Below, piece after piece: positions 20 through 44,600 of a stretch of DNA of 64,000 nt (positions within the stretch are counted from its first letter, which is position 1; every line of letters begins with the position of its first letter). The stretch is taken from IMG/VR virus record IMGVR_UViG_3300021958_000059, positions 850 to 64,849 of that record, one strand, 5' to 3'. A program made the position numbers and the translations under genes. The stretch comes from a virus. Lineage: Duplodnaviria; Caudoviricetes. Under the pieces are notes generated by a model. The model ran no database searches, was not told the DNA's origin, and saw only the letters and a program-made list of their open reading frames with translations.

Positions 20-232
20 ATGGCTATTCAATTTAATCGCGAAGCCTACAATCGTGTCTTTAATGATCTTGAAAGATTTAAAGACTTTTGTCGGTTCAAT
101 CAAGATAACCGCGGAAACTTTTATCCTTTTAATGAAAAGGATCTCTACAACAACAGCAGTTATGTGTGGAGAGCATTTGCGAAAACAAATCGCAAATATC
201 AAAATAATAATAAAAGGAACAAGCACCGATGA
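20..232 (+). CDS. Hypothetical protein (70 aa)
   Basis: ATG preceded by AAGGAAG; stop overlaps the next start (ATGA at 229-232). Confidence 0.75.
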   Translation: MAIQFNREAYNRVFNDLERFKDFCRFNQDNRGNFYPFNEKDLYNNSSYVWRAFAKTNRKYQNNNKRNKHR

Positions 233-1269
233 AAATATGGCTAGTTGATCTTGAAGCAGTAGAAACACGCTACACTAAACAGTGGAAGACTGAATTTCCC
301 AAACTGCTGAAGGCTCACGGCCATACTGTGCAAGTTCTAAATGGAGGAGATACGCCTCAGGCCACAACGCCCGGGGCGTTCCTCAACTTTGGTGGAACCA
401 ATGTTTATAAATCAAATCAATTAATGCAGATTGCGGAAGCGTTCTGTAAAGGAGAAGTAAAGGATGGAGATTATTTCCTATATACAGATGCGTGGAACCC
501 AACTGTTATCCAACTTAAATACATGGCTGAGCTACTGGGCATTAACATTAGAATCGGTGGCCTATGGCATGCTGGCAGTTATGATCCTGCTGATTTCCTT
601 GGCAGACTAATTGGTGATAAGCCTTGGGTAAGAAATGCTGAAAGAAGCATGTATGAATGCTTTGATCATAACTATTTCGCAAGTGAATTCCATATCGACA
701 TGTTCTTTGAAAGTTTTCCGGAACTGGATAGAAGCAAGGTAGTAAGAACGGGTTGGCCATTTGAATACATGGATGGACTGCTTACTATGTATAAGGGCAT
801 GAAGAAAACGGATACTGTGCTATTTCCGCACAGAATTGCTCCAGAAAAACAATTGCCTATATTCCAGGATTTAAAAGAAGCATTACCACAATACAACTTT
901 GTAGTTTGCCAGGAAAGGCAACTTTCAAAGAACGAATACCACAACCTGCTGGGAGAGGCGAAACTTGTGTTTAGTGCGAATCTACAAGAAACGCTGGGCA
1001 TCAGTTGGTATGAAGGCGCACTAGTAGGCGCACTTCCCATGGTTCCGGATAGATTGAGCTATTCAGAAATGGCCGTAGGAGATTTCCTATATCCAAGCGA
1101 ATGGACAGAGTCCATGGAATCATACAAGAAGCACAAGAAACAAGTGATGGACAAGATTGTTGATTATATGGAAAATTACGAGGACCATCTCGTAAGCCTA
1201 AATAAACAAGTAACAAAACTGAATGGAGAATATTTCGGTTGTGGAAATCTATTAAAGGCAATACAATAG
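229..1269 (+). CDS. GT-B fold glycosyltransferase (GT4-like)
   Basis: C-terminal EX7E motif ETLGISWYE in the context LVFSANLQETLGISWYEGALVGALPMVPD; VLFPHRIAPEK matches the start of the GT-B C-terminal domain. Confidence 0.8.
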   Translation: MKIWLVDLEAVETRYTKQWKTEFPKLLKAHGHTVQVLNGGDTPQATTPGAFLNFGGTNVYKSNQLMQIAEAFCKGEVKDGDYFLYTDAWNPTVIQLKYMAELLGINIRIGGLWHAGSYDPADFLGRLIGDKPWVRNAERSMYECFDHNYFASEFHIDMFFESFPELDRSKVVRTGWPFEYMDGLLTMYKGMKKTDTVLFPHRIAPEKQLPIFQDLKEALPQYNFVVCQERQLSKNEYHNLLGEAKLVFSANLQETLGISWYEGALVGALPMVPDRLSYSEMAVGDFLYPSEWTESMESYKKHKKQVMDKIVDYMENYEDHLVSLNKQVTKLNGEYFGCGNLLKAIQ

Positions 1270-1274
1270 CAACA

Positions 1275-1302
1275 TGGCAATCCACTGCCTTAACATCGGA
1301 GA
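1275..1302 (+). promoter_or_regulatory. Candidate cis-regulatory RNA (small H-type pseudoknot) over the folE Shine-Dalgarno
   Basis: Stem GGCA(1276-1279)/TGCC(1286-1289); loop ATCCAC; tail TTAACA; loop TCC is complementary to GGA(1298-1300) of the SD. Predicted by eye only. Confidence 0.4.
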
Positions 1303-1308
1303 AGTAAA

Positions 1309-1995
1309 TTGAAAAAATACGAAGAAGTAACACGCAGGTTGAAGGACGCAAACAAGCGTCATTGGGCAGGCGATAATATTAGCGAATTCATCTATGAGGG
1401 CGAAAAGCAAACACTAATTGACGAAGCCGCAGAAAAATTTGAGGGCGTTTTAGACGCACTATTAATTGATCGTGCAACTGATCCTAACAGCCAAGGCACT
1501 GCTAAACGCCTTGCTAAAATGTATTATAATGAATTAATGCAGGGACGTTATGACAAGATTCCTACTGCAACTGCTTTCCCCAATGACGGAGCAGATGCTT
1601 ATACAGGCATGCTTGTGGTTCGATCAGAACTAAAGAGTGTATGCTCGCATCATCATCAACCTGTTAGCGGAGTGGCATACATCGGTATTATTCCTAATGG
1701 CAAGGTAATTGGACTTAGCAAATATACACGTATTGCACAGTGGTGTGCAAGGCGTGGAACGCTACAGGAAGAACTGTGCAATGACATTGCACGTGAAATC
1801 AAGAAAGCAACGAACTCAAAGAACATTGGTGTGTATATCCAGGCAACGCATGGTTGTTGTGAGAATAGAGGCATCATGGCACACAGTTCATTGACACAGA
1901 CTACAGTGCTTGAAGGTTCGTTCAAGGATGATCCAGGCACTAAGAAAGAATTCATGGATAACATTAAACTGCAACAGGAGTTTGCACCACGATGA
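1309..1995 (+). CDS. folE: GTP cyclohydrolase I
   Basis: Zn ligands in SVCSHHHQP and HGCCENRG; GKVIGLSKYTRI and R.TLQEEL motifs; TTG start 7 nt after GGAG. Confidence 0.97.
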   Translation: MKKYEEVTRRLKDANKRHWAGDNISEFIYEGEKQTLIDEAAEKFEGVLDALLIDRATDPNSQGTAKRLAKMYYNELMQGRYDKIPTATAFPNDGADAYTGMLVVRSELKSVCSHHHQPVSGVAYIGIIPNGKVIGLSKYTRIAQWCARRGTLQEELCNDIAREIKKATNSKNIGVYIQATHGCCENRGIMAHSSLTQTTVLEGSFKDDPGTKKEFMDNIKLQQEFAPR

Positions 1996-2090
1996 TTTAT
2001 GATTATATCGCATGCAGAATGGCACAGGTATTCATTGTTATTGTTTTTGCAATAGGTGTCATTGGTTTCATACAGGACTTTATATTATGA
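1992..2090 (+). CDS. Small hydrophobic peptide (32 aa, MIYDYIACRMAQVFIVIVFAIGVIGFIQDFIL); below the ORF-track cutoff
   Basis: Translated by hand; ATGA overlap with the folE stop and with the next ORF; one TM-like segment. Confidence 0.55.
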   Translation: MIYDYIACRMAQVFIVIVFAIGVIGFIQDFIL

Positions 2091-2182
2091 TGAGTTCGAT
2101 AATGGGACCTATGATCGGAATAGTAATGATAATTTCTCTAGTGCTGTTTGCGCTGGAGATTTATAAAGGAGATAAAAAGTGA
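2087..2182 (+). CDS. Small hydrophobic peptide (31 aa, MMSSIMGPMIGIVMIISLVLFALEIYKGDKK)
   Basis: Translated by hand; ATGA/GTGA overlaps at both ends; one TM-like segment. Confidence 0.55.
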   Translation: MMSSIMGPMIGIVMIISLVLFALEIYKGDKK

Positions 2183-2319
2183 GCGGCAAGGGAAGTAAAC
2201 AGCGACCTACACAAATTCCTCGAAAACAATTTGAGGATAATTGGGATAAAATTTTTAACAAAAAAGAAAGGAAGGACAAGGATGCCAATACCAGAACACA
2301 TCATAATTCCAGCAGGTAA
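2179..2319 (+). CDS. Small basic phage protein (46 aa, MSGKGSKQRPTQIPRKQFEDNWDKIFNKK...)
   Basis: AAGGAG at 2166-2171 before GTG; the GKGSK.RP...F.DNWD.IF pattern is one I recognise from aquatic T4-like phages. Confidence 0.7.
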   Translation: MSGKGSKQRPTQIPRKQFEDNWDKIFNKKERKDKDANTRTHHNSSR

Positions 2320-2470
2320 GGATCCAGGCAGAGGACATTTTTATGTCAGCCTGGTAAAGAGTTTTGTTAGGATTGCAGGTTTTGCATTTCTAATGGCGGG
2401 TAATTTTTGGATTGCGGGTCTACTGCTTATTGGAGCAGAAGGACTAGGAGTAGTAGAGGAGTTGGTATAA
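2282..2470 (+). CDS. Small membrane protein (62 aa)
   Basis: Start moved to ATG 2282 (AAGGA upstream); HFYVSLVKSFVRIAGF...GAEGLGVVEE hydrophobic hairpin. Confidence 0.7.
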   Translation: MPIPEHIIIPAGKDPGRGHFYVSLVKSFVRIAGFAFLMAGNFWIAGLLLIGAEGLGVVEELV

Positions 2471-2703
2471 TGAATCTAAATGAACAGCGTGTGTATGCGG
2501 TCCAACCGCAAAAGACACAGAAGGACATTAAGATTCTTACGCCTAACGAAGCATTAATGTATAATCTTCGTGGTATTAAGTTAGTCGACATGACTGAACT
2601 GCACAATCTAACTCCACACAAGGTAAGGCTGAGCAGACAGCACTGTCCAATGAAAGGAATAGATTATGGGGCCATTTTCGGAAGAGCTACAGCAGAAGCG
2701 TAG
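2470..2703 (+). CDS. Hypothetical protein (77 aa)
   Basis: ATG overlaps the previous TAA (TAATG); part of track ORF 2407..2703. Confidence 0.6.
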   Translation: MNLNEQRVYAVQPQKTQKDIKILTPNEALMYNLRGIKLVDMTELHNLTPHKVRLSRQHCPMKGIDYGAIFGRATAEA

Positions 2704-2863
2704 CAATTACCTTAAATCATTAATTGCTGATCCAAAAATACCAGATGATATGAAAAGAATTTGGAAACAACATTATAATAACCTTGCAGTCAATGAAGAT
2801 GAATATAACAAGAGAGTGAAGGAAGTATATGCGAAAGTTCAACCCTGGAAAACCCTTGCGTGA
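2666..2863 (+). CDS. Hypothetical protein (65 aa)
   Basis: Fills the gap between co-oriented genes; plausible helical sequence. Confidence 0.6.
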   Translation: MGPFSEELQQKRSNYLKSLIADPKIPDDMKRIWKQHYNNLAVNEDEYNKRVKEVYAKVQPWKTLA

Positions 2864-3263
2864 TGATCTAATGGTGCAGGAACAGATTGACGGTTCCTGG
2901 CAACACATGGTAGGCGTGATAATGCTTAACCAAACTGATCGAATTCAGGTAAAGCGGGTGCTTCCAAACTTCCTCGCAAAATGGAATACACCCAAAAAAT
3001 TCCTAAGAAGCACGCCAGAACAGGTGATAGAAGTCATAAGAGAATTGGGCTTTTATAACAGGCGGGAAAATGCACTGCGTAAAATGTCAGAACAATACTT
3101 GACATGGGACGGAAATGATGCTACAATACTATATGGAATTGGAAAATATGGAAGTGATAGTTACGAAATATTTTTCAAACAAAACTATAGCGTTCAACCC
3201 ACAGACAAGGAATTGAAACGCTATCTAAGAGAAAGAGGTTTAGATGTTCTTGAAACTGCTTGA
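2856..3263 (+). CDS. HhH-GPD DNA glycosylase, MBD4-like (start uncertain: 2829 or 2856)
   Basis: W.HMVGVIMLNQT; LGFYNRR; HhH segment LYGIGKYGSDSYEIF parallels the MBD4 glycosylase motif LHGIGKYGNDSYRIF. Confidence 0.85.
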   Translation: MRDDLMVQEQIDGSWQHMVGVIMLNQTDRIQVKRVLPNFLAKWNTPKKFLRSTPEQVIEVIRELGFYNRRENALRKMSEQYLTWDGNDATILYGIGKYGSDSYEIFFKQNYSVQPTDKELKRYLRERGLDVLETA

Positions 3264-3744
3264 TAAACTAGGTCGCAAGCGAACTATATACGATAGAGCC
3301 GGTAAGATTCCCTATCTTGATCGTTACTATATTTTTTTAAAGGATAGAAAACGTTTTCCATTTAATATTACACTGCACAAGGTTATGATAGGTGATGAAC
3401 CTGTGCTACATGATCATCCCTGGGGTTATGCAACACTGATCCTAAAGGGAGGCTATTGGGAACACATTCCACTGCGAAACGAAACAACTGGTGGTGTGGT
3501 AGGTAGCACACGAGTATGGAGAGGTCCTGGACACTTCCGCATTAGGAGTGCAGATGATCTGCATTGGTTGGAACTACCCAAGGACAAGAATGGTAATGAA
3601 ATTCCATGCTGGAGTTTGTTCTTCATGGGCAAGAAGCAGAAGGAGTGGGGATTCCTTCCTTGGCATGGTGGAGACACAATTGAAGAACGTGGTTACAAGT
3701 GGATACACAATGAGGAGTATTTGAGTGACAGTAACATCTTTTAA
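3244..3744 (+). CDS. Cupin-like protein with HDHPW motif
   Basis: LHKVMIGDEPVLHDHPWGYATLILKGGYWEH...HFRIRSADDLHWLEL resembles cupin motifs 1 and 2. Confidence 0.65.
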   Translation: MFLKLLDKLGRKRTIYDRAGKIPYLDRYYIFLKDRKRFPFNITLHKVMIGDEPVLHDHPWGYATLILKGGYWEHIPLRNETTGGVVGSTRVWRGPGHFRIRSADDLHWLELPKDKNGNEIPCWSLFFMGKKQKEWGFLPWHGGDTIEERGYKWIHNEEYLSDSNIF

Positions 3745-4339
3745 TTTTCCTAATTTTGGATACCTAACCGATAGTATTCCTAGTGATATATTAAATATTT
3801 TAACAAACAGAGTAGGTTTATTAGATCAAAATTCTAAAAAAATGAATAATATTTTAGCAGGTAACCTAAAAAATGAATTCAATATATCAGATGTTGCTCC
3901 ATCGATAGAGCCGTATATATTAGATCTTTTAAATAGATACGATGAAGATTTTAATTATTTAAAAACTATTGGAAATTTAACATCCAATGTTCCCTTCGTA
4001 ATGGATGACCTGTGGGTTAACTTACAAGAAAAACACGAGTTTAATCCTAATCATCATCATGCTGGCATTATGAGCTTTGTTATCTGGTTAAAAGTTCCTT
4101 TCTCAAGGGAACAAGAAGATCTGTATTCGCCAGGTAATAAATCTAATAAAAATTGTTCAGGAAACTTTGAGTTGTTATATACATCTACGTTAGGAAATAT
4201 ATCATACATTACAATACCTGCAGAAGAAGGAAAAATATTAATGTTTCCTAATAAATTAGTGCATTGTGTATATCCTTTTTATAGTAGCGACGAACCTCGG
4301 ATATCTATATCCGGAAATGTTTATCTAAATGCAAACTAA
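3725..4339 (+). CDS. Putative 2OG-Fe(II) oxygenase
   Basis: EFNPNHHHAGIMSFVIWL (HxH), EGKILMFPNKLVHCVYP (distal His) and RISISGN (2OG-binding Arg). Confidence 0.8.
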   Translation: MTVTSFNFPNFGYLTDSIPSDILNILTNRVGLLDQNSKKMNNILAGNLKNEFNISDVAPSIEPYILDLLNRYDEDFNYLKTIGNLTSNVPFVMDDLWVNLQEKHEFNPNHHHAGIMSFVIWLKVPFSREQEDLYSPGNKSNKNCSGNFELLYTSTLGNISYITIPAEEGKILMFPNKLVHCVYPFYSSDEPRISISGNVYLNAN

Positions 4340-4353
4340 AATTGGAGGACAAA

Positions 4354-4683
4354 ATGGTTAAAAAAGATTATTACAGTTGGCAGGAGTTTGAAACTGATGA
4401 AGCCAAGAATTGGTTACGCACACTACTCAAGGAACGTGAGGTTGTGGTTACCTTTTCCAAGGTAAATGGCGATGAACGTGTGATGACATGCACACTCAAG
4501 GATGAATCCATTCCAGAGGAACACAGACCCAAACTCAAGGATACTCACCCACTGAAAGAAGTGGAAGAACAAAAAGAAGATAAGACCTGCACTGTTTATG
4601 ATATCAATGCCAAGGGTTGGAGAAGTTTCCGTTGGGCAAACATAAAGCAGATTGACTTTTCATTGGAGGCTCAAAATGGTTAA
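4354..4683 (+). CDS. WYL-like/SH3-fold small protein
   Basis: VVVTFSKVNGDERVMTCTL...VYDINAKGWRSFRW pattern; GGAGG at 4344-4348 supports ATG 4354. Confidence 0.7.
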   Translation: MVKKDYYSWQEFETDEAKNWLRTLLKEREVVVTFSKVNGDERVMTCTLKDESIPEEHRPKLKDTHPLKEVEEQKEDKTCTVYDINAKGWRSFRWANIKQIDFSLEAQNG

Positions 4684-5236
4684 AAAAGTTTACTACTCCT
4701 GGCAGGACGTGGAAAAAATGTGTGTAAATATTGTCACACAAATGTATAAGGATAACTGGAAACCGGATTACATAGTTGGAATTACACGTGGAGGTAATGT
4801 TCCTGCTACAATCATTTCAAACATGACTGGCATACGCTGTGAAGCACTAAAGGTAAGCCTGCGTGATGATAGCGGACACGGTATTGAGTCAAATGCTTGG
4901 ATGAGTGAGGACGCATACGGATACGATGAAAACGGAGAGTATGCTCCAGAGATGGGACAGTTTAAACACAATCCAGAAGGTAAGAATATTTTAATTGTTG
5001 ATGACATTAATGATACTGGGTCTACATTTAACTGGATTAAGGAAGATTGGAGAACTAGTTGTTTACCTAACTCACCCGTATGGGATCAGATTTGGGGTGA
5101 CAATGTTCGCTTTGCAGTATTAACAGAAAATTTATCAAGCGAGTTTGACGGTGTGTCATACTACTGTGATGAAGTTAACAAGGCTGAGGAAGACTGTTGG
5201 TTAGTTTATCCTTGGGAAAACGTGGGAGAATACTAA
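4676..5236 (+). CDS. Type I phosphoribosyltransferase (purine PRTase/Gpt-like)
   Basis: IVGITRGG, PRPP loop ILIVDDINDTGST and C-terminal WLVYPWE; GGAGG before ATG 4676. Confidence 0.9.
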   Translation: MVKKVYYSWQDVEKMCVNIVTQMYKDNWKPDYIVGITRGGNVPATIISNMTGIRCEALKVSLRDDSGHGIESNAWMSEDAYGYDENGEYAPEMGQFKHNPEGKNILIVDDINDTGSTFNWIKEDWRTSCLPNSPVWDQIWGDNVRFAVLTENLSSEFDGVSYYCDEVNKAEEDCWLVYPWENVGEY

Positions 5237-5466
5237 TGCCAACAGAATACGATAAGGTATGCACAGTTACATGCACAGACAATGACAAGGTAGCAGAAGC
5301 AGAAGTTGAAAGATTTCAAGAAAAGCAGTCCGTAGATATCTGGCTTGCAGGTAATAAAATACACATGCAATACAATGGAAAGGTATATGTCGGAAACAAG
5401 ATGGGGTTTGAATTTACAACACCCGGTCCAAGAGTATACCAAATAAACAGAGGTAGGGGATTTTAA
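5236..5466 (+). CDS. Hypothetical protein (76 aa)
   Basis: TAATG overlap with the PRTase stop; GGAG upstream. Confidence 0.7.
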   Translation: MPTEYDKVCTVTCTDNDKVAEAEVERFQEKQSVDIWLAGNKIHMQYNGKVYVGNKMGFEFTTPGPRVYQINRGRGF

Positions 5467-5624
5467 TGGCAGTAAAAGTAATCTATAAAAGAGAAGATTG
5501 GGAAAGTGTGGCAACCTGTATTAGAACAGAACAGGTTCCGGCAGAAGATATTGTTGCGATTTTCAATGATAATCCAGAATTTAAAACATGGTATGAACAG
5601 GAGTATATTAATGACAATGACTAA
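5466..5624 (+). CDS. Hypothetical protein (52 aa, MAVKVIYKREDWESVATCIRTEQVPAED...); not in the ORF track
   Basis: Translated by hand; TAATG coupling; fills the gap exactly. Confidence 0.65.
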   Translation: MAVKVIYKREDWESVATCIRTEQVPAEDIVAIFNDNPEFKTWYEQEYINDND

Positions 5625-5937
5625 GGATGAAGCGTATAGCATCATTAGTAATCTAAACGAAGAAGCACACTCAGCCGCGTGGGATAGTTGGGTGGCGGCT
5701 GATGAGATGGGTGAAAGCGATGACGAGGAAGATTGGGCTGCCTCTGAAGAAATGAGAGAAGAAGCCAGCGAAGAGCAGGCTAGATATTTCAGAACTGATT
5801 TTCAAAATCTACCGCAGGATCAACAGGACGCTATCTGGGCATGGGCTCAGAAGGATGACGACTTTGCTGAGGATTTAAAAGCATGGTATGGTCAAACTGA
5901 GTTTGATGATCACATTGACGAATTAGAGAATGAATGA
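5611..5937 (+). CDS. Acidic hypothetical protein
   Basis: CAGGAG 7 nt before ATG 5611; very D/E-rich. Confidence 0.7.
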   Translation: MTMTKDEAYSIISNLNEEAHSAAWDSWVAADEMGESDDEEDWAASEEMREEASEEQARYFRTDFQNLPQDQQDAIWAWAQKDDDFAEDLKAWYGQTEFDDHIDELENE

Positions 5938-6359
5938 TGACTGATACTTTAGAAACAGCACAGCAACAAGGTAGAGCTCCTTGGTCCGAGGTAGAAATTG
6001 ATACACGTGAATTTATTGTTTATCGTGATATCTATCCTGTGACTCCGGGGCACACACTTGTTGTTCCAAAAGAAAACACACAAGAAAATATTTTAAAGTG
6101 TTTTAAATTTGCTATGGAAATGGGAAGCATGAATATAGAAGCAGATAATGATATCACAGGTTACAATATTGGTATTAACATGGGTGCTAGTGCAGGACAG
6201 ACCTGTATGTATCCACATGTTCATTTAATTTTCCGTCGAGACGGAGATATGGAAGACCCCGCAGGTGGTGTTCGTGGAGTTATTCCAGAGAAACAAAAAT
6301 ACACCAAAAAAGAAATCAATCAGATAGAAATGTTTGATGAACCGACAGTTGGATGTTGA
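5934..6359 (+). CDS. HIT-family nucleotide hydrolase
   Basis: DIYPVTPGHTLVVPK; GYNIGINMGASAGQTCMYPHVHLIFR. Confidence 0.92.
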   Translation: MMTDTLETAQQQGRAPWSEVEIDTREFIVYRDIYPVTPGHTLVVPKENTQENILKCFKFAMEMGSMNIEADNDITGYNIGINMGASAGQTCMYPHVHLIFRRDGDMEDPAGGVRGVIPEKQKYTKKEINQIEMFDEPTVGC

Positions 6360-6372
6360 AAAGGAGAAAACA

Positions 6373-6591
6373 ATGGCACTAGGTAGAGAATACAATCGCG
6401 AAAACGCAATTGAAGCAATTAAGGAACACGCCAAAGGACACATTGCTAAACACGCAATGAACGTTGAAGTGTATCTTAAGAATGCTGCTGGCGTTGGCGA
6501 GCATCCTGATATTTTGGAAGCAATTGAAAAAGAACTTAAAATTATTGCAGAATATCATGATCAGTTAGAAGTCCTTGAAAAGTATTTCTAG
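6373..6591 (+). CDS. Conserved phage hypothetical protein (72 aa)
   Basis: AAGGAG at 6361-6366; HA.NVEVYL.N..GVGEHPDI.EAIEKEL pattern. Confidence 0.75.
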   Translation: MALGREYNRENAIEAIKEHAKGHIAKHAMNVEVYLKNAAGVGEHPDILEAIEKELKIIAEYHDQLEVLEKYF

Positions 6592-6600
6592 GAGGATATT

Positions 6601-6807
6601 TTGGCACACACCATAAAGTTAGAGGAAGATCCGGATACGGGTGATCTGGTTCTTCCATTACCCACCGAATTACTGAATCAAATGGGCTGGGATTTTGGAG
6701 ATACCTTAATTTGGGATGATAATTACGATGGCAGTTTTACACTGTCTAAAAAGGTTGACAAAGAGCAAGAGAAAGTGTATAATAAAGACAATGATAATAG
6801 CAACTGA
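6601..6807 (+). CDS. AbrB/MazE-like DNA-binding small protein
   Basis: GDLVLPLPTELLNQMGWDFGDTLIW swapped-hairpin pattern; GGAGG before TTG. Confidence 0.65.
   Translation: MAHTIKLEEDPDTGDLVLPLPTELLNQMGWDFGDTLIWDDNYDGSFTLSKKVDKEQEKVYNKDNDNSN
6755..6783 (+). promoter_or_regulatory. Consensus sigma70 promoter for queE
   Basis: TTGACA(6755-6760), 17-nt spacer, TATAAT(6778-6783): perfect consensus. Confidence 0.85.
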
Positions 6808-7711
6808 TAAGAAATACTACTACAGCGAAATCTTTCACAGCATACAAGGTGAAGGACACTACACAGGTGTGCCCACTGCGTGGATACGTTTCTTTCTGTG
6901 TAATCTACAATGTAATGGCTTTGGACAGATTGATCCTACTAATCCTGACACTTATGATTTGCCATTTGAACAGTTTGATACTACAACTGTAAAACGTGTA
7001 GAAGATTTGCCTGTATGGGATAAAGGCTGTGATAGTAGTTACACTTGGTCGAAGAAGTTTAAGCATTTAATGGGTCAAAAGACTGCTGTCGAACTAGCAC
7101 ATCAAATTATCGATACACTTAAAACAGATTCAAATCCTAAAGGGTTGTTCCTTCATCCTGTTACAGGACAGAGACAACACTTCTGTGTTACAGGCGGTGA
7201 GCCGTTAATGAAACACGGTCAAGAAGCATTCATCGGTATCATGACAGAATTTAAGCGTCTTAATAATATGCCTGCTAGTGTTACATTTGAAACAAATGGC
7301 ACACAGGAACTTACACAAGAGTTTAAGGAATTTTGGTATGTTGATAATGAAGTAACAAAAGATGTTGAACTATTTTTTAGTGTAAGTCCTAAACTATGGA
7401 GTGTGGCAGGTGAAACAGCAAAGAAAGCAATTAAACCTGAAACTGTGGCACAATACAGAAATTTGTCTGATAAAGGACAACTAAAGTTTGTTGTTGGCAG
7501 CGAGCAACAGCAGTGGGATGAGATGGAAGATGTTATCGCACAATTTAAGGCACAAGATGTGGATTATCCTGTTTGGGTAATGCCCGTTGGTGCTAGAGAA
7601 GAAGAACAAACAGCAACAGCAGGTGCGGTTGCTAAGATGGCGTTTGAACGTGGATACAATGTGGCTGCAAGGGTGCATGTATACTTGTTTGGTAATGCTA
7701 TCGGAACATAA
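6791..7711 (+). CDS. queE: 7-carboxy-7-deazaguanine synthase (radical SAM)
   Basis: SEIFHSIQGEG, TGGEPL, FETNGT, SVSPKL and RVHVYLFG; cluster motif CNLQC...GCDS; start set at ATG 6791. Confidence 0.88.
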   Translation: MIIATDKKYYYSEIFHSIQGEGHYTGVPTAWIRFFLCNLQCNGFGQIDPTNPDTYDLPFEQFDTTTVKRVEDLPVWDKGCDSSYTWSKKFKHLMGQKTAVELAHQIIDTLKTDSNPKGLFLHPVTGQRQHFCVTGGEPLMKHGQEAFIGIMTEFKRLNNMPASVTFETNGTQELTQEFKEFWYVDNEVTKDVELFFSVSPKLWSVAGETAKKAIKPETVAQYRNLSDKGQLKFVVGSEQQQWDEMEDVIAQFKAQDVDYPVWVMPVGAREEEQTATAGAVAKMAFERGYNVAARVHVYLFGNAIGT

Positions 7712-7720
7712 GGAAACACA

Positions 7721-8065
7721 ATGGACTTTATAAAGAAGATGTTTAAGAAAAAAGAGCCTGATACTAGTAAGCCTGGTCTTACTGAAAAGGAGAAGGCTAC
7801 TATGAAAAAGGAGCCATGGGTAGGTGTTTTGAATACACATGTTAACAAAGAAAATGTCCGAAACGGCTTTTTTGAGCTTGACTGGAACGAAAATTTTATT
7901 ATACAATTAAGAGAACAAGGATACGGAGTTGACGGTGACAAGGATGAAGATATTGTTGATCGTTGGTTTCGTGAACTTTGTGCAAACGTTGTAGTCGATG
8001 GTGACTACGGAGGCCCACTAGACACTGGTAGTATTGATCCAGATGTTGTTAAAAGGAATAAATGA
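7721..8065 (+). CDS. Conserved phage hypothetical protein
   Basis: AAGGA RBS; EPWVGVL...NGFFELDWNE pattern. Confidence 0.75.
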   Translation: MDFIKKMFKKKEPDTSKPGLTEKEKATMKKEPWVGVLNTHVNKENVRNGFFELDWNENFIIQLREQGYGVDGDKDEDIVDRWFRELCANVVVDGDYGGPLDTGSIDPDVVKRNK

Positions 8066-9081
8066 GTAAAATGTGTCATATAATAGTAGATACTGCGAAC
8101 ACGTTCTTTCGTGCGAGGCATGTAATTAACGGAGATGCTGATATTAAGTTAGGTATGGCTTTTCATATCACGCTAAACAGCATTAAGAAGGCTTGGCAAG
8201 ACTTTGGAGGCACACATGTTATCTTTTGCCTAGAAGGACGTTCGTGGCGAAAAGATCACTATGAACCTTATAAGCGCAATAGAAAAGAAGCACGAGATGC
8301 TCTTACTGAAAAACAACAGGAAGAAGAAACTGTATTCTGGGAAGCATTTGACACATTTAAACAATTTGTAACCGATAAGACTAATTGCACAGTATTACAA
8401 CACCCGCAACTTGAAGCAGATGATCTAATTGCAGGTTGGATACAAAATCATCCAGATGCAGAACACGTTGTTATATCAACAGACACTGACTTTCAACAAT
8501 TAATTGCACCTAATGTTAAACTATATAATGGTGTGCAAGAAGTTACTTCAACACACGAAGGATTCTTTGATAAGAAAGGACTTCCTGTAATTGATAAGAA
8601 AACTAAAGAACCTAAACCTGCACCAGATCCGCAGTGGTTATTGTTTGAAAAGTGTATGAGAGGTGATACAAGCGATAACGTATTCAGTGCATACCCAGGT
8701 GTTCGTAAGAAAGGAACTAAAAATAAAGTCGGTCTAATGGAGGCATTTGCTGATAGACAAACTAAAGGATTTAGTTGGAACAATCTTATGTTGCAACGTT
8801 GGGTTGACCATAACGGTGAAGAACATCGTGTGCTAGAAGATTATGAAAGAAATAAAACACTTATTGATCTTACAGCACAACCAGATGAAATAAGAGAAAT
8901 TATAAACGACACAATTAAAACTGCAACTACCGCTAATAAAAATATTAGCCAGGTTGGTATTAGACTTATGAAATTTTGTCACTTGTATGATTTGAAAAAG
9001 ATTTCAGATCAAGCACAAGCCTATGCAGAACCTTTAAATGCAAAATATGACAATGCAGTTGAAAATGTGGTAGGAGGATAA
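8062..9081 (+). CDS. rnh: RNase H / 5'-3' exonuclease (T4 RNase H, FEN family)
   Basis: IIVDTAN; LEADDLIA; ISTDTDFQQL; RGDTSDNV.SAYPGV (H3TH). Confidence 0.92.
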   Translation: MSKMCHIIVDTANTFFRARHVINGDADIKLGMAFHITLNSIKKAWQDFGGTHVIFCLEGRSWRKDHYEPYKRNRKEARDALTEKQQEEETVFWEAFDTFKQFVTDKTNCTVLQHPQLEADDLIAGWIQNHPDAEHVVISTDTDFQQLIAPNVKLYNGVQEVTSTHEGFFDKKGLPVIDKKTKEPKPAPDPQWLLFEKCMRGDTSDNVFSAYPGVRKKGTKNKVGLMEAFADRQTKGFSWNNLMLQRWVDHNGEEHRVLEDYERNKTLIDLTAQPDEIREIINDTIKTATTANKNISQVGIRLMKFCHLYDLKKISDQAQAYAEPLNAKYDNAVENVVGG

Positions 9082-35634: not shown

Positions 35635-35641
35635 TATTTAT
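35635..35641 (-). promoter_or_regulatory. Late promoter core ATAAATA
   Basis: Overlaps the stop of the giant gene, directly before ATG 35630. Confidence 0.5.
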
Positions 35642-38600
35642 TCAGGTAACTTGGTTGACTTAGCAGCAATGAACTTACTAATTGGTGTATTATTGGATAA
35701 AAGTGTAATTCCAGCACTTGCTGTGGTTGCACCCTTGTCATACCATGTTTGACCCGTCCTTTTAATTATTGTTATTCTAGTTCCAGCACCTGCAGGAACG
35801 GTTAATCTAATGTATGGAGTCACTCCATCCACAGAAAACTCTGCTTCTACTTCCTTATCCGCCTGAGGACTAACTGGACCCAGCGTTTCATCAAATATTG
35901 TTAGTGGTGTTTTTCTAAGACGTTTTCCGCCAACAAATACTTCAACTGTGTCACACCTTCCATAATCATTCGGAATAGTTGTTACACTCCAAGATCCTAC
36001 ACTAGACTTACTAGGAACAAAATCAAGTGGGCCAACTAGCAAACTACTGCCGTCGCCTACAAAATCAATTCTATCCTGGCTTTCTGTATACGGTAATGCT
36101 TCTCTTGGTCCTAGATCAACTACATTATCATTTAATTGGTGTAACTCTTTAATTGCTGTTCCTTGCACTCCTCTTCTTAATTGGCCAAGAGTATTTCCTT
36201 CAACTGTCATATATTCAATCTTTTCATTATCAATTTCAATTATTCCTGGAATATTTCTGTTTCTAATTGGTTGATATAAGTTGGTTGCATCTGAAACTTC
36301 TATTGTATCATCATAGTAATTTAATTCTTTTGCTAATACAATTGTTGATTTAGAATATCTATTATATCTATAAACATTAAGCATATCTTTGTTTATTTCA
36401 TATGCACTAGGTAATCTATAAATTTCTGTTCCGAATGTAGTAATTGTTATCGTATCAGAAAAAGTATTTTCTACTTCAAGATATATAACTCCTCTCGGTA
36501 ATGAAATATAATAATCAATATCCTGTATTAATTTAACACCGTTCTTGTAAACCCAAACGTAGTCAACACCCAACGGAGTAAATGGTAATTCGTAGTTTAC
36601 CTTTCCTCCTACAATAACATCACTATCAATTTTCATACTAGGATATTCATTAAACCATGTAATTTCTATTTCGTCTCCTGTTGTTAAAGATACAGAACTA
36701 TCCACAACAATATCACCATTTTCTATGCTGTATTCACTTCTTAAATTATTTTCAATCTTAACAACATCTCCAGTTTGTAGAAGGCCTGTCGTAAATGTTA
36801 ATACTCTTGTTGTTCCGTCATATACATAATCCTGAATAAAAGTTTTTCTCTCTCCATTTACAAACACTGATATGTTTGCTGAAAGTATAGTTCCTGCTCC
36901 CTCTTCAGGATCTTGTCCTAGTGTGTAAGAGTTTGTGGTGCCATCATAGATGTCATAAACAGTGTCCGGCCCTTTTAATTTTACATCATTAACTTCTACT
37001 ACTATCGACGATAAAGAACTTTCTCTTGTAAGTTGAACAAAATTATCTAAATTATAATTTCTATCAGTCCCATTATAGATTACAGTCTGTCGATTCACTC
37101 TAACAATTGACAGGTTAGATGAATCAGTATCAGTTGAAGTGCCCAATACTATAATTTTAATAACTGAATTTTCGGAAGGAACTGTTCCAAACTGAATTAG
37201 TGTTCTACCTACTGTATCAACTAAGTCTGTGCTGTTGGTAAATTGTGCATCTGTTTCGACTCCATTAATTGTTGTAAACACGTTTGTTGTTAACTCATAA
37301 GGGGCATTGGTTAGGTATAGGCTCGTTTCCCCGTCGGCATTGAACTCTTGATAGTCTAGAAGACTAACTCCGCCAATTCCTATTGAAATAAGCTCGATCT
37401 TTTTATTTGAATCAGGAACTGATGTAAACACTACTGTCCTGTCGCCTACTATTTCATAATCAGTATCTAAATCTTTTTTAATTCCGTCGACAAAAACTAA
37501 AACTGATTTGTTTTCAAATACTTGTTGTCCTATATCATAACTGTTTGTAGACCCATCCGAAATAATAACCTTAGATTGTATAGGAGCAACACCGTTGTTT
37601 GTAGTTTGATAGACTTTAATACTAAGACTATCAAGTATTTGTCCGGGAACATTTTCTTCTGTTGCAGGAACTTGCTCTGGTCCTATAAATCTTCCGCCTT
37701 CGATTTTTATTTCTTGTGAAGTTATTCCCGAAGCAGTTGCATAGGCACCTTCCATCACACTTAAACTTCCGCCACTTATATTGGAATCAACAATGTTGGG
37801 ATCAGTAATAGTTACTGCGCCGTCGCTTTCGATTGGACGGAATATTAAAATATCTCCATCGTTAGTTCTGATATACTGACCTACTTCTACCTGTGTAGTA
37901 GATCCGTCCCCTACAAATGTTGGCATTAATGCATTTTCATTTGTAACTAAAGATGAATCGTTATCACCTCCAAAGTATGGATCATCAATTCTTACAACAG
38001 GAGGATTTTTCACACTTTCACTATACTGTAAATCATCAACAGTAGGTAATGAACCTTCGCCTTCTCGTTTTAGATAGATATTAATTTGCTGTCCATCTGT
38101 CGGAACAAAGGGCAATACAACATATTCAGTGCTTCCGTCACATACATGATAATAATCAGAGGCTGCTTCAACACTATCCCAACTGTCTGTAAACCATGGT
38201 AAGGCATCCCATCCGCCTGTTACATCAAACGTTGTTCCTTGAACTTGAACTCCGCCATAATCGATACCTGTCATTAATTGGTCGAGGTCTGTGCCTTTCA
38301 TTCCTGTAACAGGACTATAATATTTTTCAATCCTGTTAACGCTATCTAATAACTCATCGTTCTTTTCATAAATTATTTTTATAACATCACCAGATAACGG
38401 TGGAACTATAAATGTAATCTTACCTTTTAAGATATTAAAATCTTCAGTATTAGTTTTATATAAAGTAATTAAATATTCACTACTTAAAACTATCTGATCA
38501 TTTTTAGTAATTGTTATCTTGGATTTATCTCTAGTTGGTGCATATTTTAAATCAAAAACAGAAGTTGTTCCTGATGCTGTAAATATTTCAGTATCACTAA

Positions 38601-41600
38601 ACTGAGAATAAAATCCGTTCTTAGTTATTCTATCAAATTTTATGGCTATATCAAAATTTCTAACCTTTGTTTCGCCTAACTTTGCTACTGCTTTTGCAAT
38701 ATCTGTTGAACTACCATTTCCGCCTACTAGCGATACAGTTGGTGTTTTAGTATACCCTGTGCCCTCGTCTAATATTTTAATTCCAACAACCTTACCACTA
38801 GATATAAATGCCTGAGCAGATGCTCCTGATCCGTTTCCTTCAATAACTACCTTAGGCGGACTAACATATCCACTTCCTGCTGAGGAAATAACAATATTAA
38901 TAATGTTATATCCGTTATTATCAGCCCAATGCTTCCAAGGATATCTGTTTATTTCATCACTTAGATTATTAACAGTTGTAAAGGATCCTGCCGCATCGGA
39001 ATATACCGCAGGTAAATCAAAGTCTGTTGTTGAAAGAGGCGTTTGTTCTGTAGAATCATACTTACTGATGTATTCTCTTATTGTAGTTCTATATGGTTTT
39101 ACTTCATCTATGTATTGTGCAAAACTATCTAAATTATCGTTCTTATAATTGCTTATAGTTTTAAACTCACCAACATTGTGTATTGCATTTAGGAAACTGG
39201 TTTTAAATGTCCAATCAACATATGTTTGTTCGTGTAATACATATCTTACAGAATTAAAAAATATCTTATTCCATTCTACAGCGTAATCGCCAACAAAGAT
39301 ATTTTCTTTAACTGCCTTAAATATATTTCTTAACTCGTCCGATGGTTCTAAATCATACAATCCAGTATCAAAACTTGTAATATTATCAAAACCAATACCG
39401 CTGGTATCAACATCATATAATGAGACTGATAACTGTATAGTTCCATTAAATCGACCAACTAACGAATAATTTCCTAAAGGTAGATTACTAGTTTCTACAT
39501 TCTTTTCAAACACTGCCCACCCACCTGAGCCGTATTCCTTAATTCTTATAAGGTCTCCAATTTCAACGTTAATTGTAGGTTCTCTTGACACATCTGAAAT
39601 TTCTTTAATAATTCGAGAGGTAGGACCATAACCTTCCTTCCACCAGTCAACATAATTCCAGTATTTTCTTGTATCGAAACCTTGGGAGGCACTTCTAAAG
39701 AAACTTTTTCTTTCATCGTCCCATGCATAAATTGCCCAAAAATTGTTTACCGTATTATCATTTTCTACCAACACTGAGAATCGTCTAACAGAAACTTCAG
39801 CATATGTATAATTTTTTCCTCTCTTCGTTACTACTACTGCAACTATTCTTCCCTGCCCATCAATATGAGATACTGCTTCTGCTCCTTCGCCATCTCCCTC
39901 TATGGTCACAGCAGGTCCTTGATAAACTCCAGCAATTTCTTGATCAAAAAGTTCTTGTGGCTTATAACCAAACCCAGGATCAATAATATTGATCGAACTA
40001 ATTTCATTATCAATAATATTTGGAGTTAGAATTGCTCTAGTAACTCTTGTGGTTCCTACTGTTTCTAAATCTATTAAATTAGAAACACTTAAATCATAAA
40101 GATATAAACTCTTGTCGGGTTGTTCATCAAATAAATTTAGATTTTCAAAATTAATTGTATTAGCAAAAGCCTCTTTTTGTAATACTGCATTAATTGTTTG
40201 TATTGTTTGTTTTAAAATTTGTTTTCTATTAACAAACATTCCTTGTCTAGGTCTAACCCCTATACCAAACTGTTGCTTAATAGGTAAGTTAGGATCAGGA
40301 ACTCTATTACCTTGTTTATCGTATCCAACTAAACTATCAATCCATTTTCTTTCAAGTTTATCTGCAGGAATGCTGTCTGCTACACCTTCAGTTAACAATT
40401 GATATTCATTATGAATTGAATTTTTAGCACTAGTATCGTTAAACTTTTCAATGTTTAGTATAGTTGTATCACTGGAAACTATATTTCTGTAATTGTAAAA
40501 GAAAACTTTATCAGATGCAGCAAGTGCAATATATGTGTTTCCTAATGTCGAAGGATCAGTTATTGATGACGCAACAGACGCGGCTGAAATTGTTCTACCT
40601 AAAGTATTATCAGGAACTGTCACTTTATTCTTGACCCAGAAATAATATTTTGTTTCTGTTGTTTGTCCAGTATCAACATTTAAAAATTCTTTGAATGTAT
40701 AAACTGTATCATCAGTATATAGAGGCTGGCCACTTATTCCTAGTTGTAATCCTTCTGTTGTATCTGCAACTGCTGACCATTCGCTAGGAAGTAATCTTGA
40801 TTCTACCCATTCGTAAACATCTACGCTTGATCCTACTGCCTGCTTACCCCAATTGGCAAGTCTATAAGCAGTATCGCCTTGCTCATAATCTATCCATTTT
40901 ACGGTAGAAAGATTCCACCACAATTTACCAACATTTTTTTCATACCAAGAAATATTTGCATCGACCACAACGTCATCAGTGCCTACATTATAAATTGCAG
41001 GATCATAAGGTGTTTTAAATGACAGTTCTTTTTCTGCTTCAGCAAGTAATTTAAGTTTTCCAGGATCATATATTTCAAGGTTCTGTATTTTAGTGTCAGT
41101 TACTTCATCATACAACGAAATTCTTTTGATAGATTCTAAATCTACCTTAGGAGTTTGTTGGCCAACGATTTCTAAAGATTTAATGTTTTGATCTTTTCTA
41201 AATAATCTTACCATTCCCGTTACAGGTCCTGTAAAATCTAATGTAGCACCATGGCTGGCTGGGGAGATATAATACGGGGATCCTACAATAACCACATCTG
41301 TTGTTAGTGCTACCGTATGACCAAAGGATTCATTTAGTGAAAGATCATCTTCTAATTTTTCTGCTAGATAATATTTAGACCCTTTCTTTTCAAAAACATA
41401 CACAGCACCAGAATACCCTCCATAGGTTTTAAATGTTGTGTTACTTTCATCAAAGAAAGTTTGACTTTCGTCGAATCTTATTGGGAAATTGTATCCAGTA
41501 TTGTTTGCTCCAATTACAATTCTGTCAGTATTAGCAGAAATAGCAACGCTCTGTCCAAAATATTCGTTAGGATATCTTCCAAAACTTTCTATCTTTTGTT

Positions 41601-44600
41601 TTATTCTAAATCTTTCCTGCGTTGAATCTGTTTCATACTTAAGAATGTATGCACTTCCTTGATTCTGGAAATTCTTATCTGCTCTTGGACTAGTTATAAC
41701 CAGGTTGTTACCACTATAATCTATAGATACAGCGTAGCCTAATTGGTCTCCGCTACTAATATTTTCCACAGTATCAAGATCACTTATATCCTGAAGAGAA
41801 TCAGCAGTTATCGTTTGTTGTAACTTATAATAACCGTTGGTGTTTTTCTTATAAACAAAAACCTTACCAACTGCTTCAGACGAGCTATCACCAACATTTA
41901 CCCAAGGATAGCCTTCGTCGGGTGATTGATTGAAACTTCTTATTGTGCTGTCAGGGCCAACTGATGTTATTCCTATATTATCTAGTCTATGATATTGGCT
42001 TTCGTGCCTAACAACGTCACCTTCTGTATATTCAAAATTAGGTTGCCAGTTTCCTCTATAATTAGGAAAATATTGGCCGTCTGCATCTACAGCACCAATT
42101 ACTAGTGTGTTACCAGTGTAGTCCATTGCTAGTGAACTACCAAATTTATCACCTACTTTTATCAGTTCAGCCAGTTGATCTGCGTTCAGTATTCCTGTTG
42201 CCAATGTAGAGCCATCATCTTCTATTCCTACACTCTGTGGAAGAGACGTTAGTGTGTTAACATTGTCAAGTTTTATCCAATCAGAAGATTCAATTGTTAT
42301 TGTGCTACCGTCGCCTTCGTTATCTGCTATGGCTTGCCATAAATTTCCTGCATAATAAACAATACTACCTTCTGGATAGAATGTTTGCTGAATTACTGTT
42401 CCTGTTCCTTCTGTAGGACCTGTTGATGCAAACACTGTGCCTGGGGCATTGCTAGATGCGCCGACTAATAAGAAGTTTGAAGTTCCGCTAGAACTAATTG
42501 TATAAGTTCTACCGGATTTCATTTCTTCAGAAGTAAATGTTCCGCCTGGCTCATACGTTCCTTTATAGTTAGAATTTTGATCGAGTATCCACCCTTCTGT
42601 TTCATTATATACGTAAAGGTAAACTCTTCCCTTGTTGCCCGCAGCACCGGGTGCAGAAACTGCCATTGAATAAGTATTTCCATTCTTGGCTAATGCTATT
42701 TTACTTCCAAAATATCTGTCGCCATCGGCTCTAGGACTTACAAAACTATCAACTAAGTTCCATTGGTTAGCAGAATATCTATAGACAGATATCATTCCTT
42801 GTTCTTGATATCCTTCAGAGGAACCCGATTCTAATGCTTGTATATTTTTGACAACTTCCCAATCATCTGTGTAGACATTAATTGTGCTACCGTCGGCAAC
42901 AACCGATCTTACTGCCTTCCATAATTGCGCACCATATTGAACAATATCTCCAGCAGCATAAGAATCAAAAGAATTAAAAACTCCTCTGAAGTTACTTCTT
43001 ATTCCGCTTGCCTTCGGTGACCCTATAACTAACCACTGATTATCAGGGCTAGTTGCGATTTCATCGCCAAAGGTGCCTGTTACCGCTGCGGTAAATCCTT
43101 CAATTGGTTGCAATAACTGTTTTACATCTAACCCAGTAGGTGTCTCTAAATAACAAACAACCAGTGCCGAACCTGTTATTGATGCTATTATTTGTTTTTG
43201 CTGCTCGGCATATATTACTTTTTTACCTGCATGAATGGGTGTGCTTGAACCAAAATTTAAAATTTTCTTAGAACTGTATTGTTTATTTTTTTCTAATACT
43301 TCCCACTTACCATCGGAATTTTTATCTATGAATAAGTTTGATCCTCTTCCCATCAATGCAACCTGTTCGGGATCCATATCATCGTAAGTCGAGTATCTTG
43401 CTTCGGTAAGCAGCACAGGGTAAGCAAATGAACTAGGTTCAAAATTGGTATCTGCTGGAGGTGTATCTGTTTCAAATGTAACTGTGAAAGTTTGAACTGA
43501 TGTTATCTTATGAAACCCAGTTATGTCTCCTAGATCAGTTAATCCTATAATATCATCTATTGATAAATTATGTCTTTTATCAAATTTAATTGTTACAATA
43601 TTTTTGTCTGTGGTTATATTAGTTATGGCTAACTCATTTACAAAATTAACCCTTAATACTGACCAAGACTGTTTATCAAATGTAATCCATATATGATCAT
43701 TTTCATCAATAAAGTCTATATCTAAATCAAGTATATCATCTCTAGTCTTTAAGATATATTCCACTTGATTAGTTTTTACATATCCTGCAGATCTCTTGGT
43801 GATATCATTAAGTGTTGTTGTATTAATTGCTGTAGTATAAGGTATCGGAGCATATAGAAAATCAGACTTGTCAACCCTATAATATCTATCTATAAAATCA
43901 CCTTGCGAAGTTTCAGTAATTAAAACAGGTTGCGGGTTAATTTCAAACTGGTCCGTTTGTAACTTTAATTCAATATTATCAGATTGTTCATTACCGCCAA
44001 ACTCAGCAAGTTTGAAAGCCCATTCTTCTTTTAGAGTAACACCTTCTTCTATAGTTCTTCCTAGTTTGTCAAATATCTTTGTTAATGCATTATTGGTGCC
44101 TTTTTCTCTGATGAAACCTTGATACAACCTAAACTGTGTAACTTCATCTTCTGCAAGATTTTGTAGATACTGCCTAGTTTGATATCCTATTGTGTGCCTT
44201 GCAAGATCTCTCTGGCTGGCTGCTAACCCTTCACTATCAACATCAAAGTAATCTTCTATTTGATTAATTCTATAATCATAGTTAGGAATTAAACTTTTTG
44301 TAGGAGTTGAATCTAGTCTGGTCCAATTTTGTGCATTAAAAAATTCACCACTAGTATGATTATCTTTACTGGTATAGTTTACGCCTTGATAATTTATAAT
44401 ATCGCCTAATCTATAATCATTGTAAGGTTCCCAAGATTCAATATTAACATTATCAAATATGAATCCAGGCGAAGTATAATCGCCGTCCCAATCAACAGTT
44501 CTAAATCCTTGAACCTTTATTCTTTCCTGTCTATATCCCGTTGGCTTATCAAATATTACATCGTTAAAAACTGTTCTATCAGAGAAAATTGTTACATGCT

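Follow-up and report, generated by a model that had tools for sequence, protein, structure and literature searches.

Class I preQ1 (preQ1-I) riboswitches, whose aptamer of 30-34 nt is held to be the smallest natural aptamer (PMC10622847), are unified by an H-type fold, an A-rich L3 lying in the minor groove of P1, and a cytosine immediately before the 3' strand of P1 (PMC11625349). This specificity cytosine is preceded by A in types II and III and by U in type I (PMC11625349). The remaining contacts to the ligand come from an L1 uridine, the adenine ending L3, and a closing G-C pair, the O6 of which binds the 7-aminomethyl group (PMC11625349, PMC10622847). In the type III representative of E. 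coli, P2 comprises the pairs C9-G30, C10-G29 and U11-A28, and mutations at the L1 U, the closing G-C or the L3 A cost 645- to 39,000-fold in affinity (PMC10622847).

Translation of folE is governed in Alphaproteobacteria by THF-II (the folE motif RNA), a small leader RNA that contains the Shine-Dalgarno sequence and whose ligand presents a guanine-like pterin face. THF-II is a rod-like hairpin of ~55 nt with an internal-loop pocket and no pseudoknot. Among the H-type pseudoknots of viruses, the luteovirus frameshift elements, typified by that of BWYV, have an S2 of 3 bp, an L1 and an L2 of 1-2 nt each, and an AAC-containing or A-rich L3 of ~7 nt; such compact knots with an AAC-rich L3 are stable without a ligand. 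To our knowledge, riboswitches have rarely been reported in phages.

Organization of the folE leader and its promoter-like elements

The window analyzed here is a stretch of 64,000 nucleotides of a tailed phage (IMG/VR record IMGVR_UViG_3300021958_000059, positions 850 to 64,849), the record being an 18%-complete fragment of a T4-like phage of ~350 kb with genes for baseplate wedge, hub-lysozyme and gp46-like proteins. On its plus strand an upstream ORF (229-1269) ends with the TAG at 1267-1269, leaving a gap of 39 nt (1270-1308) before folE (1309-1995, plus strand). The latter encodes a GTP cyclohydrolase I of 228 aa, which is recovered by PF01227 at E 2e-40 and by the NCBIfam FolE families at E 3e-40, under the cut-offs of those families. 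Its start codon, the TTG at 1309-1311, is backed by relatives which have ATG or TTG at the equivalent aligned codon, and TTG is the start in roughly half of the motif-bearing folE genes (85/165). The upstream ORF encodes a protein of 346 aa without a match in Pfam, PHROG or NCBIfam; it shows 62% identity and synteny with the gene 5' of the motif in one relative (G002; L045 1297-2388).

The elements of the leader, all on the plus strand, follow each other closely. The 5' strand of P1, GGCA (1276-1279), pairs with its 3' strand, UGCC (1286-1289), as assigned from sequence and covariation, and the two enclose the loop AUCCAC (1280-1285). The L3 tail UUAACAUC (1290-1297), with its conserved AAC and UC, then leads to the invariant Shine-Dalgarno sequence GGAG (1298-1301), which lies 7 nt 5' of the start codon. 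Within the loop, A1280 corresponds to L1, U1281-C1283 to the proposed 5' strand of P2, and A1284 is variable, while C1285, invariant in 84 aligned sequences, occupies the position of the specificity cytosine of preQ1-I. In the window sequence U1281-C1283 is complementary to G1298-A1300, and the proposed 3' strand of P2 (plus strand) accordingly consists of G1298, G1299 and A1300. The original prediction, made from this sequence, had described a GGCA/UGCC stem with an AUCCAC loop, a tail, a Shine-Dalgarno sequence and a weak TTG start, and the window matches this layout letter for letter.

A putative -10 hexamer of the folE promoter, TACAAT (1262-1267, plus strand), falls within the last bases of the upstream ORF. 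Among the distinct upstream regions of motif-bearing relatives, a TATAAT-like hexamer (at least 5/6 positions) ends 3-19 nt before P1 in 94/99, and TAAATA is found ~19-23 nt upstream in 71/99; TTGACA is also often present. A generic sigma-70 scan returned nothing over the shuffle level and did not list the site at 1262-1267. The position of the hexamer suggests that the transcript starts a few bases 5' of the hairpin, and that the leader is therefore probably composed of approximately the motif alone. TAAATA is similar to the core of the T4 late promoter. In several relatives (L065, L071, L237, L262, L318 and others) a block consisting of TTGACA, CCTAAATAA and TATAAT lies ~60 nt before folE, and this block is shared by motif-bearing and motif-less relatives. 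Four metatranscriptome runs gave contigs which cover parts of the window and in some cases extend from the upstream ORF through the leader into folE; these were rejected as evidence of expression or of the transcript start, as they belong to relatives and the RNA libraries possibly contain DNA.

Phyletic distribution and covariation of the motif

Retrieval from IMG/VR by FolE similarity gave 80 loci with FolE identities of 74-98%, in the upstream regions of which the loop and tail are constant and the stems differ yet stay complementary. A covariance model (termed R1), trained on 40 distinct examples of the motif, recovers exactly one copy each in 63 of these 80 loci and in the window, always on the same strand and directly 5' of the folE start, with no further copy away from the folE leader in the 550 kb of loci sequence. 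Similarly, in five relatives represented by 197-317 kb of sequence the folE copy alone scores, and the other genes of the window have no tail-type sequence before their Shine-Dalgarno sequences. Weak R1 matches 5' of PTPS genes in two relatives (L091 and L092, from G005 and G001) were rejected as second copies, the hairpin of the motif being absent. Upstream of these QueD-like genes lie a terminator-like hairpin rich in GC, an extended -10 promoter (TGnTATAAT) and a ribosome-binding site, AACAUAGGAG, which resembles the tail of the motif.

A gene-blind pattern scan of IMG/VR, in which one common stem, the loop and the tail were fixed and no gene was required, matched at least 120 viral stretches. 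Eighty loci were fetched among the pattern matches listed, and folE lies immediately 3' of the motif in 75 of them; the remaining five stop 2-165 nt past the motif, so that all 75 informative loci carry folE. The FolE proteins linked to the motif among these matches range down to 41% identity. The identical pattern had 23 matches in 596 Gb of bacterial and archaeal genomes, 22 of which were dismissed as chance occurrences in high-GC coding DNA without folE. The single exception is a 5.5-kb contig of 39% GC in which folE is present; it was binned with a Crocinitomicaceae MAG and is most likely a phage contig. The presence of folE at the viral matches, as against the chance nature of the cellular ones, indicates that the motif is phage-borne and tied to folE.

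In FolE versions with an N-terminal extension the motif shifts along with the true start codon, and it always precedes either folE itself or a short ORF to which folE is coupled. The intervening ORF is confined to one lineage (L045, L049), where it encodes 132 aa of no known family (L045 2426-2824), lies between the motif and folE, and has a stop codon overlapping the folE start; in this lineage the motif would govern a two-gene unit. Loss of the motif has occurred repeatedly among close relatives, with at least five changes forced on the FolE tree, and some motif-less relatives retain the UCGGAG remnant alone behind the same promoter. These repeated losses, in which folE is retained, imply that the motif is dispensable.

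In searches of cultured phages with blastn, the region and a 50-nt motif query gave a short match to folE coding sequence in a Rhizobium phage and chance matches in Nodularia phages. The closest cultured FolE relatives, namely those of Sinorhizobium phage Phosso, Rhizobium phage RHph_I1_18 and Vibrio phage 2.275.O, lack the motif and have different leaders. Phosso (PV764938.1; L381 5860-5945) has the nearest cultured FolE, at 65% identity, and the same neighborhood of glycosyltransferase, folE and queE-like genes. Its folE leader is longer and contains a stem GUGG/CCAC, the 3' side of which has a CUCC complementary to the GGAG Shine-Dalgarno sequence ~35 nt downstream.

When folded as a single sequence, the hairpin has a minimum free energy of -5.1 kcal/mol with a z-score of -0.19, and 75/200 shuffles fold equally well. 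As this is at the level of shuffled sequence, the energy provides no evidence, and the case for the structure rests on comparative data. Covariation was assessed on 83 distinct sequences, which were found by a sequence-only HMM and anchored on the loop, and pairing thus could not bias the choice of copies. P1 is paired in 96.7% of its cells in this set, and each of its four pairs shows changes in both strands: the outermost pair occurs as G-C, A-U, U-A and C-G, the second as G-C and C-G, the third as A-U, U-A and C-G, and the closing pair as C-G and A-U. The covariation score of P1 is 0.48, as against 0.085 in shuffles (0/500 as high) and at most 0.053 in slid controls. Across a wider set of 167 distinct motifs the three inner pairs are essentially always formed and the fourth in ~80%, the length of P1 ranging from 3 to 5 bp across copies.

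The unpaired segments are far more uniform than P1 (167 distinct motifs): the loop is AUCCAC in 95, AUCCUC in 64 and AUCCCC in 4, with G never found at position 5, and its A, U, C, C and final C are invariant in the leader alignment. The tail, AAC(A)UC followed by GGAG, is nearly invariant. These patterns bear out the expectation, voiced from the window alone, that related folE leaders would preserve the loop and the Shine-Dalgarno segment around a covarying stem: the loop AUCC(A/U/C)C is near-invariant, UCGGAG is invariant, and the stem covaries. Of the same 167, 144 motifs close P1 with C-G and 23 with A-U, the window having the latter form (A1279-U1286). L261 is the one G-C case, outside these counts. 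The form of the closing pair is coupled without exception to that of the tail, C-G occurring with AACUC and A-U with AACAUC or AACAUA, such that the extra A of the tail is present solely where the closing pair is A-U. On the FolE tree the C-G and A-U forms intermingle, and supported branches force at least four switches between them. The coupling, together with this intermingling, is what a tertiary contact of L3 with the top of P1 would produce, and recombination of the whole leader would look alike. On the whole, the comparative data suggest that the folE leader is very probably a real, strongly conserved, phage-specific cis-regulatory RNA positioned over the folE ribosome-binding site.

Relationship to preQ1-I and other compact RNAs

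The UCC of the loop and the GGA of the Shine-Dalgarno segment are complementary in 100% of the sequences, with three pairs and zero variation. Covariation in the proposed P2 is uninformative, because UCC:GGA never varies and the GG would be conserved as part of the Shine-Dalgarno sequence anyway. The rare loops without UCC, namely AUACCUC, AUACCUAC and ACACCCUC, are all paired with tails ending in UAGGAA or UAAGGAA, and these combinations permit CCU:AGG, which is the P2 register of type III preQ1-I. A pseudoknot between the loop and the Shine-Dalgarno sequence is therefore plausible, and both the joint change of variant loops and tails and the coupling of the closing pair to the tail lean towards it. 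An occluding pseudoknot of this kind formed the core of the original prediction: the leader fits an H-type fold over the Shine-Dalgarno sequence, with a likeness to preQ1-I and to type III above all, and the proposed loop-Shine-Dalgarno helix is the part without covariation.

The leader was also initially likened to preQ1-I itself. RF00522, the gathering score of which is 39 bits, matched neither an 8-kb nor a 121-nt segment containing the motif, even at E<=10, and had no match at E<=0.001 in the whole record, with a positive control in B. subtilis; the Rfam scan of the whole record likewise yielded no riboswitch family. The 8-kb and 121-nt segments were also scanned with all 4227 Rfam families, none of which matches the motif; no riboswitch family was found, THF-II included. 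The base before C1285 is A, U or rarely C, consistent with the specificity-cytosine feature. At the other three ligand-contact positions the motif differs. The L1 uridine (U6, or U7 in E. coli), which reads N9, is replaced by the invariant A1280, with the next U being assigned to P2. The adenine at the end of L3 (A29/A30, or A27 in type III), which reads N3 and N2, is replaced by an invariant UC (U1296, C1297), with conserved As of the tail 2-4 nt upstream. The closing G-C with a 5' G is here C-G or A-U. Given the lack of an Rfam match and the retention of only the specificity cytosine among the four contacts, the motif falls outside preQ1-I, and membership in that class has to be abandoned; yet it is built like the smallest subtype of the class, and may work alike.

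The closest resemblance is to type III, as represented by the E. coli yhhQ leader, in which a short pyrimidine-rich loop pairs with the Shine-Dalgarno sequence, as is proposed for the phage motif, and control is translational (PMC10622847, PMC11625349). The two further share a cytosine abutting the 3' strand of P1 and an A-containing L3 after P1, and the CCU:AGG register reappears in the rare phage variants. In contrast to type III, the phage loop is 6 nt rather than ~8, P1 has 3-4 conserved pairs instead of 5, L1 is an A in place of UU, UC rather than A precedes P2, the proposed P2 is UCC:GGA, and the gene controlled is folE as opposed to a transporter gene or queCDEF. Type II, typified by the T. 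tengcongensis and B. subtilis aptamers, shares with the phage motif an AC before the 3' strand of P1 and an L3 that would lie in the P1 minor groove. The segment UUAACA follows P1 both in the window and in the T. tengcongensis aptamer, as had been correctly stated at the outset (PMC7641330). Unlike the phage motif, type II has a loop of 10-12 nt and a purine-rich P2 strand, and its Shine-Dalgarno sequence is only partly buried; it also requires G5-C, U6 and A29 for preQ1, all three of which are missing here.

The parallel with THF-II lies in a short leader that takes in the Shine-Dalgarno sequence and would set the translation of folE; the phage leader does not match the THF-II family and is just 39 nt long. 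The BWYV-type knots have dimensions near-identical to those proposed for the phage motif, but they lie inside coding sequence and act on elongating ribosomes, whereas the phage motif covers a Shine-Dalgarno sequence. A separate case is provided by the cultured Vibrio phage 2.275.O (MG592671.1; L383 4744-4774), with a genome of 349 kb, the folE leader of which has a hairpin and an A-rich tail aligning to the Rfam PreQ1 model at 12.5 bits, below the gathering score. This leader has a U after P1, a UC before the 3' strand of P1, and a run of As followed by CUA, and the genes neighboring its folE are annotated as queF, a yhhQ-like transporter and queC.

Pathway context, candidate mechanism and rival explanations

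The region 229-9081 of the window contains a gene set of the 7-deazaguanine type, with QueC, QueD and TGT not in view. Beyond folE it includes an HhH-GPD glycosylase-like protein (2829-3263), a cupin (3244-3744), a 2OG-Fe(II) oxygenase (3725-4339), a WYL_2 protein (4342-4683), an XGPRT-like phosphoribosyltransferase (4652-5236), a HIT protein (5934-6359) and a QueE-like radical SAM protein (6716-7711). Elsewhere in the window a single ORF of 4647 aa (35638-49581, minus strand) lies amid tail-fiber and baseplate genes. The pathway search took in QueC, TGT/DpdA, QueD and QueE. QueE-like radical SAM proteins, with best matches that all belong to QueE families at scores below cut-off, are encoded 2-11 kb from folE in the window and five relatives. 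A QueD-like PTPS is present in four of the five relatives and absent from the window's fragment. The deazaguanine pathway invoked in the initial interpretation is thus not seen in complete form: QueD-like and QueE-like proteins are present, and neither QueC nor TGT/DpdA was found in the record or in the five large relatives. Weak 'QueC' matches in two relatives proved to be NAD synthase.

The phosphoribosyltransferase and the HIT protein hint that synthesis takes place on nucleotides and not through the exchange of bases in DNA. The predicted product of the pathway is 7-carboxy-7-deazaguanine (CDG) or a derivative, or else a pterin, and nothing found in the search for these four functions points to synthesis of preQ1 by the phage. 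In one relative (G005; L216 13319-14931) the QueE-like gene overlaps the start of a gene of the NAD-synthase family of PP-loop amidating enzymes, a gene that neither the window's record nor any of the other four relatives has; this enzyme might amidate a carboxylate such as that of CDG.

We consider the chances about even that the leader is a metabolite-gated pseudoknot controlling the initiation of folE translation. Under this model the UCC of the loop would pair with the GGA of the Shine-Dalgarno sequence to form an H-type pseudoknot of 26 nt, with an L1 of 1 nt, an L2 of 2 nt and an L3 of 7-8 nt in the minor groove of P1, and would thereby hide the ribosome-binding site of folE, a gene that often has a weak TTG start. 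Less surely, as a P2 of 3 bp on a P1 of 3-4 bp should be only marginally stable by itself, the knot would probably be locked by a small metabolite resembling guanine, which would stack between the two helices and be recognized by the invariant C1285; the outcome would be feedback repression of the first enzyme in the FolE/QueD-like/QueE-like route of the phage. The pocket differs from that of preQ1-I at the positions reading the aminomethyl group and N9, and for this reason CDG, preQ0 or a pterin would be a more likely ligand than preQ1.

In a more specific version of this model, which we regard as less likely than not, the motif would found a riboswitch class of its own and, at ~26 nt, be the smallest aptamer in nature, with the preQ1-I fold plan and a re-tooled pocket. 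Such a pocket would sense a 7-deazaguanine with an acceptor substituent at the 7-position. The lead candidate would be 7-carboxy-7-deazaguanine, the predicted end product of the FolE/QueD-like/QueE-like gene set, with preQ0 or a pterin as alternatives. Speculatively, the base at the pocket floor on the 5' strand, which is C or A with an amino group (barring the one G-C exception) as against the keto-bearing G of preQ1-I, would suit a ligand with an acceptor at this position.

Two other explanations accept the leader as a regulatory RNA and dispense with a metabolite, and we judge each to be unlikely. One is a translational operator bound by protein, in which a phage repressor or FolE itself binds the hairpin and the Shine-Dalgarno sequence, or an endoribonuclease cuts at GGAG. 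Precedents exist in T4, where gp32, gp43 and RegA exert autogenous translational control and the endoribonuclease RegB cuts at GGAG, and the phage studied here is T4-like by its baseplate wedge, hub-lysozyme and gp46-like genes. A stem of free sequence with a fixed loop and fixed flanking single-stranded bases is typical for hairpin operators, and the restriction of the motif to one gene per genome is as predicted by autogenous control. On the other hand, no candidate RNA-binding protein was found, and FolE has no RNA-binding domain beyond its variable N-terminal extension. Further, an operator needs neither complementarity between the loop and the Shine-Dalgarno sequence, nor an A-rich tail, nor a cytosine before the 3' strand of P1, and yet all of these are present, with variant loops changing jointly with the Shine-Dalgarno segment.

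The other is a structure independent of any ligand, either a self-sufficient pseudoknot or a 5'-terminal hairpin, which would constitutively damp folE translation and maybe guard the 5' end of a very short leader against decay. It has a comparably low standing. The probable transcript start lies only a few bases from P1, where 5' hairpins stabilize mRNAs; the frequent TTG start (85/165) fits permanently low expression, the motif has been lost repeatedly with folE kept, and pseudoknots of this size at frameshift sites do without a ligand. Nevertheless, the conservation of 13-14 invariant unpaired bases across ~170 distinct variants, with FolE identities down to 41%, would be unneeded for such a role, and a stem of 3-4 bp with a P2 of 3 bp is weak for a constitutive block.

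A true preQ1-I riboswitch, that is, a miniature type III with canonical binding of preQ1, appears very unlikely. The shared fold plan, the (A/U)C before the 3' strand of P1, the short pyrimidine-rich loop and the pairing with the Shine-Dalgarno sequence (PMC10622847, PMC11625349) speak for it, as do the variants with loop AUACCUAC and a tail ending in AAGGAA, which come near the type III pattern, and the sub-threshold RF00522 alignment (12.5 bits) in the cultured Vibrio phage, whose folE has queF, queC and a yhhQ-like gene as neighbors. These points are set against the absence of an RF00522 match for the motif, a closing pair that is not G-C with a 5' G (L261 being the one exception), an A at L1 and no A before P2, as well as a lineage in which neither QueC nor TGT was found and in which the search for QueC, TGT/DpdA, QueD and QueE gave no sign of phage-made preQ1. 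Lastly, a chance hairpin, or an inverted repeat serving as a DNA-level operator for a transcription factor, would accord with the unremarkable single-sequence energy and the site just 3' of a promoter-like element, but is scarcely credible given that the half-sites vary with complementarity kept around a fixed asymmetric loop, a signature of RNA pairing rather than of a palindrome, and that the motif tracks the Shine-Dalgarno sequence rather than the promoter.

Returning to the metabolite-gated pseudoknot, the motif is, judged from sequence comparisons, a good candidate for an unusually small riboswitch. No phage folE riboswitch or preQ1-type riboswitch matching it is described in the literature searched, which covered subscription journals thinly. 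It is several bases shorter than the preQ1-I aptamer, and an RNA of this length can be made directly by chemical synthesis, so that the question of its ligand is immediately testable. Its carriers are giant, T4-like and uncultivated phages, hundreds of them, sampled from estuaries, fresh water, the sea and soil. Should a metabolite bind to it, the motif would define how far the preQ1-I fold can shrink, probably with a new specificity, and these phages would use feedback to regulate how GTP enters the 7-deazaguanine or pterin route that they encode. If it indeed represents a new class, it would reveal metabolite feedback by giant phages on a DNA- or nucleotide-modification pathway that operates without QueC and DpdA.
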